Shown here one piece after another: positions 6,747 through 21,882 of a stretch of 64,000 nucleotides of DNA. The position numbers were made by a program, and so were the translations under genes. The notes under the pieces are model-generated. The model saw nothing but the letters and a program-made list of their open reading frames with translations, was not told the DNA's origin and made no database searches. Numbering within the stretch: the stretch's first letter is position 1; each line of letters starts with the position of its first letter. The DNA comes from Escherichia coli. Lineage in GTDB: Bacteria > Pseudomonadota > Gammaproteobacteria > Enterobacterales > Enterobacteriaceae. The stretch lies in NCBI RefSeq assembly GCF_016026235.1, contig NZ_CP065613.1; one strand, given 5' to 3'.

Positions 6747-7247
6747 ATGCGCATAGTTACCGCTGCCGTCATGGCCTCAACGCTGGCAGTCAGTTCATTA
6801 AGCCACGCTGCTGAAGTCGGTTCAGGCGATAACTGGCATCCGGGTGAAGAACTTACGCAGCGCAGTACGCAGAGCCATATGTTCGACGGCATAAGTTTAA
6901 CCGAACATCAGCGTCAGCAGATGCGAGATCTTATGCAACAGGCCCGGCACGAACAGCCTCCTGTTAATGTTAGCGAACTGGAGACAATGCATCGCCTTGT
7001 CACCGCAGAAAATTTTGATGAAAACGCTGTGCGCGCACAGGCAGAAAAAATGGCGAATGAGCAAATTGCTCGTCAGGTTGAGATGGCAAAAGTCCGCAAC
7101 CAAATGTATCGCCTGTTAACGCCGGAGCAGCAAGCGGTTTTAAACGAGAAACATCAACAACGAATGGAGCAGTTGCGCGACGTGACGCAATGGCAAAAAA
7201 GTTCATCGTTGAAGCTATTGAGTAGTAGCAACTCACGTTCCCAGTAG
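6747..7247 (+). CDS. cpxP: Periplasmic Cpx-pathway adaptor/inhibitor CpxP
   Basis: ORF track 6744..7247; start at second ATG ([11 protein letters not shown]...) giving 166 aa; signal peptide plus LTXXQ motifs. Confidence 0.93.
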
Positions 7248-19474: not shown

Positions 19475-19783
<309 letters not shown>

Positions 19784-19797
19784 TCTCTTCCATGCAG

Positions 19798-19823
19798 AGG
19801 CGCCGCAAGGCGCCTTATTTTTT
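19798..19823 (+). terminator. zapB intrinsic terminator
   Basis: Hairpin aggcgcc-gcaa-ggcgcct then tattttttac. Confidence 0.85.
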
Positions 19824-20538
19824 ACTTCACTGTATTTTTAGCAGACAACATAATCTCCATCGCCTGTTGGCGATATTTATCTGCCGTATCTGGCTCCATT
19901 AATGCAATGATCCCCACAGCCCTGGGGGTGTCTTCAAGATAAACACTGATGGTTCTTTTCTGCTGACCATCAAAATTTATCAACACATCCTGATACTTAC
20001 AGGTGAAATGTTTGGCATTACAATCATGAAACTGGAAGGTTTCTTCATTGTATTGATCCTTGAGATTGTCTCGCTGCATCTTCTTTAACTCTTCCAGCGA
20101 GTCATCGGCGCTACGTCCTGCGGGCAGGCGGAAAGCAGAAATAAAGACGCTATTATCTTCACTTCTTATATCAATGGTTTTATCAGTACTAATAGAAACC
20201 GTATTCCAGTGTCGGTTTGGGACAGTCACGGAAATAGCTGCCTTCTCAAACGTATAGTGCCACGGGGTGAACAGACGAAACGTATTGCCGACGTTGGATA
20301 AAAGCAGGACTCCCAATACCCAACAGCACCCGCGAGTAAAACTGGCGAAGTTACGCGTTTTTTTAGTGAATGTGCACAGAATACCTGACACAAGCACGGG
20401 AAGTAATAACGGCCCAAGAAGTACTGAACCGATATACTCGCCAACCATCCCAGGATCTCCAGTAAGCAAGTTACTGTGCTGAAGATGACTAAGAAAAATG
20501 GTTATTATCCATAGTATTAATAAGATAACGTATCTCAT
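19822..20538 (-). CDS. Uncharacterised integral membrane protein, islet paralog B (3 predicted TM helices plus ~150-aa C-terminal domain with CX6C pair)
   Basis: 238-aa ORF; hydrophobic segments near residues 3-18, 34-56, 70-84; about one-third identical to the upstream ORF; AT-rich; not part of the K-12 gene order as recalled. Confidence 0.75.
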   Translation of the reverse strand: MRYVILLILWIITIFLSHLQHSNLLTGDPGMVGEYIGSVLLGPLLLPVLVSGILCTFTKKTRNFASFTRGCCWVLGVLLLSNVGNTFRLFTPWHYTFEKAAISVTVPNRHWNTVSISTDKTIDIRSEDNSVFISAFRLPAGRSADDSLEELKKMQRDNLKDQYNEETFQFHDCNAKHFTCKYQDVLINFDGQQKRTISVYLEDTPRAVGIIALMEPDTADKYRQQAMEIMLSAKNTVK

Positions 20539-20570
20539 ATCAATCCATTATTATTAACATGCACATCAGA

Positions 20571-21257
20571 TCATTGACGAGCAGAAAGCATCATTTTCAT
20601 TACTTCTTCTTGATATTCGTCCAAATAATCTGGGTCGATAGCTGCGACCAGTTGTATCAAATTAGTGTTATCCAGTAGAGTCATGAAAATAGCATGTCTT
20701 ACTTTGCCATCACTCATTGTTTGCACTCCTTCCTGATAAGCGCAGGCAAATCCCTGAACATCACAAACATGCATTTCTGCAGTTCCGTTTTGAGTCGCGG
20801 TAAGTTCCTCGATTGAATGCACACCGAGTTCATTTTGTGAGAAGGCAACAATAGCTAAAATAGCATGGGCATCCCGGGTCACCAGGGTTGGTCCTTGTTT
20901 TACTATATTGGCAACCCACTGTTTGCTCGGAACCGTGACGGTGATACCTGGCTCCGGGAAAGTATAATCCCATATGCTGTGTCGTTCCCACACCGTATAG
21001 CTGCTATAGATAAGAAATAATCCCATTAACCAACAAGTGCCGCGAATAAAGCTGCGGCTGCTTCTTTTTTTTATCGTTATACAGATTATTGTGGCGATAA
21101 TAAATGATAAGGCAAGTGGGTTAAAAAATACGTTAGCAAAATATAAAATCATTTCACCCGCGTTGCCAGATAAAAGAAATTTGTAGCGGAAATGGTTAAC
21201 GGCTATAAGTAATAAATATATAAATAAAAGAATAATATTCTGCATGAATACGTCCAT
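20571..21257 (-). CDS. Uncharacterised integral membrane protein, islet paralog A (3 predicted TM helices plus ~150-aa C-terminal domain with CX6C pair)
   Basis: 228-aa ORF; alternative start at ATG 21245 (MQNIILL...) has a slightly better GGA spacer; paralogous to 19822..20538; AT-rich. Confidence 0.75.
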   Translation of the reverse strand: MDVFMQNIILLFIYLLLIAVNHFRYKFLLSGNAGEMILYFANVFFNPLALSFIIATIICITIKKRSSRSFIRGTCWLMGLFLIYSSYTVWERHSIWDYTFPEPGITVTVPSKQWVANIVKQGPTLVTRDAHAILAIVAFSQNELGVHSIEELTATQNGTAEMHVCDVQGFACAYQEGVQTMSDGKVRHAIFMTLLDNTNLIQLVAAIDPDYLDEYQEEVMKMMLSARQ

Positions 21258-21263
21258 GTATAA

Positions 21264-21288
21264 AAAAGGGGAATTTAATTCCCCTTTT
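21264..21288 (-). terminator. rraA intrinsic terminator (bidirectional hairpin)
   Basis: Perfect 11-bp stem aaaaggggaat-tta-attcccctttt; on the minus-strand transcript it is followed by a U-tract. Confidence 0.8.
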
Positions 21289-21304
21289 AACGCATGGCAG
21301 ATAC

Positions 21305-21790
21305 TTATTCAATATCCAGCGGATCTTCTGAAAGAATAATCCCGGTATTGTCGGCATAAAGATGGTCGCCGGAGAAGAAGGTAACACCGCCAAAATTGAC
21401 GCGGACATCGCTTTCGCCAATGCCTTCGCCAGCGGCACCAACCGGAATTGCCGCCATCGCCTGGATGCCGATATCCAACTCTTCCAGGTCATCTACCTGA
21501 CGCACCGCGCCGTAAATGACCAGACCTTCCCATTCATTTTGTACTGCCAGACGCGCCAGTTCAGCATCGACCAGTGCGCGACGAACAGAACCACCGCCAT
21601 CGACGACAAGAACACGACCACGGCCATTCTGTTCGAGCAGATCGTACAGCAACCCGTTGTCCTCGAAACATTTTACCGTGATTATTTGTCCGCCAAACGA
21701 CGCCCGTCCGCCAAAGTTGGAGAACAGCGGTTCCACGACGTTAACATCTTCTTGATAGATGTCACAAAGCTCGGAAGTATCGTATTTCAT
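21305..21790 (-). CDS. rraA: RNase E inhibitor RraA
   Basis: 161-aa ORF ([28 protein letters not shown]...). Confidence 0.95.
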
Positions 21791-21882
21791 AGGCTTAACA
21801 TTCAGTTGCTGCGAGAATTTTCAGTATATCGCGCTATGTGGTCTGTTGGCAAAATCATCAATTGTTAATTGATATTTGTCAG

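Follow-up and report, generated by a model that had tools for sequence, protein, structure and literature searches.

In Escherichia coli K-12, a read-through transcript covering hslV-hslU-menA-rraA has been reported from SMRT-Cappable-seq (bioRxiv 10.1101/262964), and rraA itself is directly followed by an intrinsic terminator, a hairpin that has both an A-tract and a U-tract (AAAGGCACCGCAAGGTGCCTTTTTT), which ends rraA transcripts and faces the convergent gene zapB. In the present work, we have analysed the same neighbourhood in a stretch of 64,000 nucleotides (nt) of E. coli (contig NZ_CP065613.1, assembly GCF_016026235.1), hereafter the window, whose coordinates are used throughout. The region concerned is glpK-glpF / zapB / rraA-menA-hslUV-ftsN, in which two minus-strand open reading frames (ORFs), here called A and B, sit between zapB (plus strand, 19538-19783) and rraA (minus strand, 21305-21790) and form an islet; in K-12-type strains, the two flanking genes are separated by no more than 84 bp, which hold an unrelated terminator (L004 1760-1850). 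The two islet genes are paralogous to each other (30% identity, E = 7e-31). Gene A corresponds to ECs_4855 and rraA to ECs_4856 in O157:H7 Sakai, whereas the EDL933 tags are EDL933_RS25985 for A and EDL933_RS32875 for B.

As in the K-12 operon variant, same-direction genes of this neighbourhood would be reached past a terminator by read-through, and as in K-12 an intrinsic hairpin stands directly after rraA. However, the K-12 read-through was measured at a different (hslVU) terminator and is proposed here for the islet-type one; moreover, the islet hairpin is unrelated in sequence to its K-12 counterpart, has a weaker stem (-8.4 vs -11.0 kcal/mol) and, instead of facing zapB, precedes a same-direction gene by 18 nt. 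We hold, with slightly better than even confidence, that A is most likely transcribed by read-through of this modest terminator from the rraA and menA promoters, and that B is supplied in addition by a promoter located inside A.

The rraA-A junction and the proposed sources of transcript

Read on the minus strand, the junction runs from the rraA stop codon TAA (21307-21305) through GTATCTGCCATGCGTT, the hairpin AAAAGGGGAAT-TAA-ATTCCCCTTTT (21288-21264), TT, ATAC, ATG 21257 and GACGTATTC to ATG 21245. The hairpin begins 16 nt past the rraA stop and is built of a core stem of 7 bp with 4 G-C pairs (21284-21278 / 21274-21268), a loop (21277-21275) and a T6 tract (21267-21262); pairing between A and U lengthens the stem to 11 bp, the U6 tract overlapping this extended stem, and UUUUUUAU is the U-tract directly 3' of the hairpin stem. 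ATG 21257 is located 6 nt beyond the extended stem, exactly as a preliminary description of this DNA had read it, and ATG 21245 is located 18 nt beyond the hairpin; all that this description had read from the sequence itself holds. A consensus scan labels the structure terminator-like, its folding is far better than that of shuffled sequences (z = -4.8, with 0 of 200 shuffles equally good) and its palindrome is single-copy in the window, where 0 chance matches are expected. On an approximate d'Aubenton-Carafa-type score it reaches +13.7 vs +33.3 for the K-12 allele, and it is predicted to terminate transcription, but with modest strength. The same description called it the rraA terminator; it is not the rraA terminator of K-12 but that of the islet haplotype, where it is also found in alleles that carry B only. 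An Rfam search of the hairpin region returned sub-threshold overlaps only (sraA, 24.5 bits for a cut-off of 56; SraG, 23.3 for a cut-off of 50), and a known RNA family was rejected since all scores were below cut-off.

Regarding promoters, a consensus scan of the minus strand from 21258 to 21822 detected no sigma-70-like site matching at least 9 of 12 positions. The best matches of the hairpin region in a position-weight scan of the same strand are two sites at 8/12, CTGCCA-17-TAAATT (21300-21272) and TTGAAT-17-TAAAAG (21312-21284), and both are missing from L005, which is syntenic but belongs to another genus (its hslU-menA-rraA segment is 86% identical to that of E. coli), and from L021, a third lineage with a gene of the A type. 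Promoter scanning does recover the mapped starts of rraA and at 21133 with exact geometry between -10 and +1. For EDL933, a Cappable-seq study (PMC10469882) covers LB, M9, acid and salt conditions in exponential and stationary phase, in triplicate, with start sites sought within 250 nt upstream of each start codon and in a separate stretch downstream (window position = EDL933 position - 4986658). In the part of its Table S5 available to us, the rraA start site stands 26 nt upstream of the rraA ATG (28 nt in K-12), and the only list that includes gene A is that of genes for which no start site was found over the 250 nt upstream. As the lists of upstream and downstream starts share no gene (0 of 14 in the part compared), A would therefore have no reproducible upstream start. 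Within 21258-21330, no primary 5' end for A is mapped in this part of the table, the sole listed start, 21133, lying downstream of the start codon. The junction thus appears to be without a promoter of its own for A, in keeping with the earlier remark that none is obvious at 21240-21300.

It follows that A would be transcribed mainly as a 3' extension of rraA, and we infer that read-through is the main source of its mRNA; read-through from menA-rraA, which the preliminary description had also suggested, is plausible. Indeed, A has the direction of rraA with no promoter between them, as in an operon extension, and the mere 18 nt from hairpin to ATG 21245 are too short for a promoter. In the mechanism that we propose, transcripts would originate either from the rraA promoter (21816) or from those of menA and hslVU, which lie further upstream; a fraction of the rraA transcripts would pass the modest terminator, A forming the 3' extension of these RNAs, and B (start 20538) would be translated from the same read-through RNA as well as from a transcript beginning inside A at 21133. 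Weak Shine-Dalgarno (SD) sequences and partial termination would together hold both membrane proteins at a low level, and the 60 bp between rraA and A would constitute a compact junction under selection, with a terminator, an A/U-rich leader of about 20 nt, a degenerate SD and ATG 21245. The rraA promoter is presumably dependent on sigma-S. According to a review (PMC3997798) that cites Zhao et al. 2006, rraA is induced on entry into stationary phase.

The start mapped at 21133, which has a matching promoter inside A and is a possible supply for B, had been overlooked in the preliminary description. A second strong promoter-like site, TTAACC-16-TATTAT (21097-21124, minus strand, score 10.2), is also located inside A; it has no start site among the Cappable-seq entries listed in the available part of the study.

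It had also been suggested that a promoter is embedded in the hairpin region. In such a case, A would be served by a promoter that is weak or active under certain conditions only and that overlaps both the hairpin and the end of rraA, for instance CTGCCA-17-TAAATT (start around 21265) or TTGAAT-17-TAAAAG. A transcript beginning within or after the 3' arm could not form the terminator, and its leader, about 20 nt long, would open more readily. Both matches exceed the 99.97th percentile of window positions, a leader starting at 21265 opens at 5.7 kcal/mol vs 9.8, and L005 has TGGATA-18-TAAAAT just upstream of its hairpin. However, both sites match the consensus at only 8 of 12 positions, TAAAAG is devoid of the key final T, the -35 of CTGCCA-17-TAAATT falls in an unconserved stretch, and comparable scores occur about once per kilobase per strand in the window. 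Moreover, the candidates differ in identity and in position among the three lineages, none being conserved, and the placement of A in the available Cappable-seq lists speaks against an upstream start. We therefore regard a promoter of this kind as rather unlikely and disfavour the earlier suggestion.

Several points weigh against transcription of A by read-through. No transcript data across the rraA-A junction were retrieved (RNA-seq, Term-seq or reverse-transcription PCR), and the locus tags of A and B have no match in the available supplements of RNA-seq and Ribo-seq studies on EDL933 and Sakai (PMC4048457, PMC4765031, PMC5597208). The lack of an upstream start for A is deduced from membership in the available lists and not read directly, and a promoter that is weak or active in few conditions would escape the thresholds of that study, which required a minimum relative read score and detection in each of three replicates. 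The internal start is seen in one of eight conditions and could reflect a spurious intragenic promoter in AT-rich DNA. With its perfect U6 tract and its A-tract, the hairpin could terminate efficiently; in an RNA that has passed it, an outer helix (CCAUG/CAUGG) can engage the GG of the SD. Finally, the leader is so strongly conserved that a function beyond that of a terminator and a ribosome-binding site is conceivable.

Table 1. Features of the zapB-rraA interval and its surroundings in the window.
Feature	Position	Strand	Remarks
Islet-type intrinsic terminator, hairpin AAAAGGGGAAT-TAA-ATTCCCCTTTT	21264..21288	-	core stem -8.4 kcal/mol
A/U-rich leader of A	21246..21263	-	degenerate SD GGA at 21255-21253 (AAGGA in L005) and non-start ATG 21257; conserved in three lineages
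Gene A	20571..21245	-	ECs_4855 = EDL933_RS25985; 224 amino acids (aa), predicted three transmembrane helices then PsbP/Mog1-like domain
Gene B	19822..20538	-	238 aa, paralog of A; annotation pipeline gives only 19822-20448
A-B spacer	20539..20570	-	32 nt; degenerate SD TGGA at 20547-20544, AAGGGA in most other alleles
rraA promoter TTGCCA-18-TATACT	21823..21852	-	top score of the scan (12.6); published start at 21816, 7 nt past the -10
Putative promoter inside A, CTGGCA-18-TATATT	21140..21169	-	consensus scan and position-weight scan
Cappable-seq start site	21133	-	EDL933 5007791; 112 nt inside A, 7 nt past the -10 of CTGGCA-18-TATATT; stationary-phase M9 only, in the available part of the study
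rraA coding sequence (core gene)	21305..21790	-	stop TAA here, TGA in K-12
Segment unlike K-12-type strains	19780..21306		last zapB codon to rraA stop codon
A-specific segment	20558..21258		B-only alleles have about 195 nt of unrelated AT-rich spacer instead
zapB terminator of the islet haplotype	19797..19826	+	T-tract overlaps the B stop (19822-19824)

Start codons and ribosome-binding sites

Alignment of the family places the start of A at ATG 21245 and that of B at ATG 20538. From these codons, A and B align in register starting at M1, and 21 of the 21 full-length members of the family begin at the same alignment column with M, then R, K, Q or H, then hydrophobic residues. The energy needed to open a ribosome-sized site is 21.0 kcal/mol at ATG 21257 vs 9.8 at 21245 (23.0 at 20448), the former codon being buried where CCAUG and CAUGG pair in an outer helix at the terminator base; a ribosome bound at 21257 would need the terminator to be melted. 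ATG 21245, which with its GGACG had already been proposed as the more plausible start, is also the choice of the Prokaryotic Genome Annotation Pipeline (PGAP), so that family alignment, the L005 sequence, opening energies and annotation agree on it.

For B, PGAP picks 20448, so that a protein of 208 aa is annotated in several genomes, among them those of O157:H7 and E. albertii. The codons so omitted, 30 in number (20449-20538), encode the first transmembrane helix and are kept as protein in five Escherichia lineages, with a ratio of nonsynonymous to synonymous substitution rates (dN/dS) of 0.05-0.17 at a dS of about 0.3. The annotated start of B is therefore probably misplaced, 90 nt too far downstream.

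Translation of A from ATG 21257, with the N-terminus MDVFM and SD-less initiation right after the terminator, appears in contrast most improbable. This codon is the first start codon of the A ORF and is present in all close alleles; L021 has an in-frame ATG at the same position (ATGGATGTATATATG), and two among the few substitutions of the leader hit third codon positions of the 21257 frame. However, L005 has AAG at this position, the duplex energy with the anti-SD is +1.9 kcal/mol, meaning that no SD is present, as previously noted, and the outer stem buries the ATG at the opening cost given above. The four-residue extension is, moreover, absent from every family member, and the downstream ATG is chosen by PGAP as well as by the gene callers of L005 and L021. 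Regarding the leader read in the 21257 frame, it holds too few independent changes to judge coding and has no start codon in L005. Because the ATG recurs in L021, a minor start at 21257 may be conceived, although it is unlikely.

As criterion for an SD, we used an uninterrupted match of 4 or more bases to the anti-SD at the 16S rRNA 3' end, located 5-10 nt ahead of the start codon. Before ATG 21245, the GGACG at 21255-21251 reads GGA-n7-ATG, with complementarity limited to GGA plus GU, for an anti-SD duplex energy of -4.0 kcal/mol. B has GGA: downstream of the A stop (20573-20571), the 32 nt that lead to ATG 20538 include TGGA-TTGAT-ATG, the weak motif already reported in this gap, at -3.1 kcal/mol. 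For comparison, the median is -6.0 for 33 neighbouring Sakai genes and -2.5 for random 20-mers; between 12 and 21% of these neighbours have an SD equal to or weaker than those of A and B, and values of -0.6 for rraA, -2.3 for menA and -2.4 for ftsN are found nearby. Both sites are thus weak, as had been claimed, yet not exceptional, rraA and menA being weaker. In orthologs, the same positions carry AAGGA (L005, -6.1 and -5.9 kcal/mol) or AAGGGA (most B alleles, -5.3), and single substitutions to T in the two SDs of the window give ATGGA. Judged by this comparison, they would be real SD positions that have been degraded in this lineage.

Conservation and alleles of the zapB-rraA spacer

Comparison of the window with L005 gives an identity of 89% over the rraA coding sequence, 42% from the rraA stop to the hairpin (16-18 nt), 84% from the hairpin to the ATG of A, 65% over the A coding sequence, 50% over the A-B spacer and 58% over the B coding sequence. 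Across three lineages, the A proteins are 39-54% identical, and the gene order rraA, hairpin, leader and A-type gene is retained; L021, whose A-type protein is 39% identical to A, has the layout rraA-TAA-...AAAGGGGAAA-TTTA-TTTCCCCTTTTTT-ATATATGGATGTATAT-ATG. The stem is nearly invariant across nine alleles, and changes that preserve its pairing are found: the innermost U-A becomes A-U in L021, and L005 and L012 gain one G and one C on opposite arms. RNAalifold counted 0 double substitutions in an alignment of eight sequences. Terminator and leader being conserved with matched changes in the stem, they would therefore form a selected unit.

Downstream of its A-type gene, L021 (1-4314) has genes for a carboxylesterase, a major facilitator superfamily transporter and an AraC-type protein, with no B paralog or zapB, which shows that the unit of rraA, hairpin and A is found in at least two different genomic settings. 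For the more distant members of the family, contigs are mostly too short for genomic context. In L005, zapB and the B-like gene are separated by a further gene (6761-7072, 103 aa) whose product has a transposase domain of the Y1 (HUH) type (PF01797). This product belongs to the IS200 or repetitive extragenic palindrome (REP)-associated enzymes, which act on DNA hairpins, and its gene has no copy in the window.

The conservation of hairpin and leader could be taken further, and both seen as a regulated gate acting by conditional termination or antitermination, or by the CCAUG/CAUGG outer helix burying the SD. We consider such a gate very unlikely; if it existed, it would couple the synthesis of an uncharacterised family of PsbP-fold inner-membrane proteins to stationary-phase transcription of rraA and would have been kept as a unit (3' end of rraA, hairpin, leader and gene) across enterobacterial genera.

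Three structural alleles of the zapB-rraA spacer exist in Escherichia, namely the K-12 type, a B-only type and the A+B type of the window, and the variable segment extends into the stop codons of zapB and rraA, both being TAA here and both TGA in K-12. Among 5426 complete E. coli genomes, A+B is found in 657, B-only in 19 and this hairpin in 676, a share of about 12% for the islet-type terminator; hairpin and K-12 arrangement occur together in none of them. B-only alleles, present in E. albertii NBRC 107761, E. whittamii and some E. coli, match the window from rraA through TTTTTTATA (down to 21259), and homology restarts about 19 nt ahead of the B ATG, past the AT-rich spacer of about 195 nt. 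The start codon of A abuts the terminator because the structural breakpoint falls exactly at the end of the T-tract. That the B-only spacer is a remnant of gene A was considered and rejected, as it has no similarity beyond the shared ends. Some B-only alleles (L012 2741-3000, L013 and L014) have a perfect TATAAT 12 nt before the B ATG, overlapping the SD region (TATATAATAAGGGATTGATATG), where the A+B allele has TAATAATAATGGA; judging from its position, this TATAAT would yield a nearly leaderless B mRNA.

At the other end of the islet, the hairpin of the zapB terminator has no U-tract when read on the minus strand (score about -30), and no obvious intrinsic terminator was found on this strand after B. 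Islet transcripts may hence run antisense into zapB.

The A/B protein family and its selection

The family is small, with 34 representatives among 1.84 billion clusters, and is restricted to Escherichia among 100,044 species genomes, two metagenomic relatives set apart. Neither protein has a match in Pfam (above threshold), NCBIfam or PADLOC. An AlphaFold2 model (predicted local distance difference test score of 90.4) has three transmembrane helices and a C-terminal alpha/beta domain; the predicted alpha/beta sandwich (residues ~90-224 of protein A) superposes on PsbP, DcrB and Mog1, and, by the positive-inside rule and a cysteine pair, the domain is probably periplasmic. Sequence identity to these structures is only 6-15% (cyanobacterial PsbP 2xb3, DcrB 6e8a, LpqN 6e5d and TplEi 5h7y, an immunity protein of the type VI secretion system), and what sets the A/B family apart from other PsbP/Mog1-like envelope proteins is its membrane anchor of three helices together with an invariant pair of cysteines.

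With a dN/dS of 0.20-0.34 for A and 0.11-0.27 for B, both genes are under purifying selection, and they must therefore be expressed. Both ORFs are also intact in most of the 657 A+B genomes. Some lineage-specific decay has nevertheless occurred: in E. coli LR-28 (L003 ~2950-2965), codons 4-6 of A, which are rich in T, have lost 1 nt, and the gene is annotated as frameshifted, MFDS1022581 (L002 1543-2169, a B-only allele) carries an internal stop in B, and truncated A variants exist.

These data bear on the alternative that the islet is essentially silent, AT-rich accessory DNA, repressed for instance by H-NS, in which the start at 21133 is spurious and the weak signals reflect decay. H-NS-suppressed intragenic transcription has been described for E. 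coli, and the islet shares with such genes an AT-rich accessory segment (GC content of 30-49% vs about 52% in the flanks, and 30-35% at 21000-21300); A moreover contains several promoter-like sites and a single mapped start in sense orientation, found in one of eight conditions in the available tables. The decayed alleles just mentioned and the substitutions to T in both SDs relative to other alleles are also consistent with silence. However, dN/dS values of 0.1-0.3 for both genes, the first 30 codons of B included, the intact ORFs of most A+B genomes and the conservation of hairpin and leader across genera argue against it. The internal start is, moreover, well placed for the downstream paralog, and a role of H-NS is here hypothetical; silence of the islet is thus, in our view, unlikely.

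Expression of A and B by read-through and from the internal promoter would represent one more case of accessory genes located behind a core-gene terminator without a promoter of their own, an ordinary low-expression arrangement which does not challenge current understanding. The start codons are fixed by this analysis for O157:H7 and related genomes, at 21245 for A and 30 codons upstream of the RefSeq call for B, and the terminator that follows rraA proves to vary among strains. Moreover, a small enterobacterial family of membrane proteins with three predicted transmembrane helices and a PsbP-like domain, without described function, has been identified. Carried as an accessory pair by about one in eight E. 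coli strains, A and B are predicted to follow rraA in their expression and to be induced in stationary phase.
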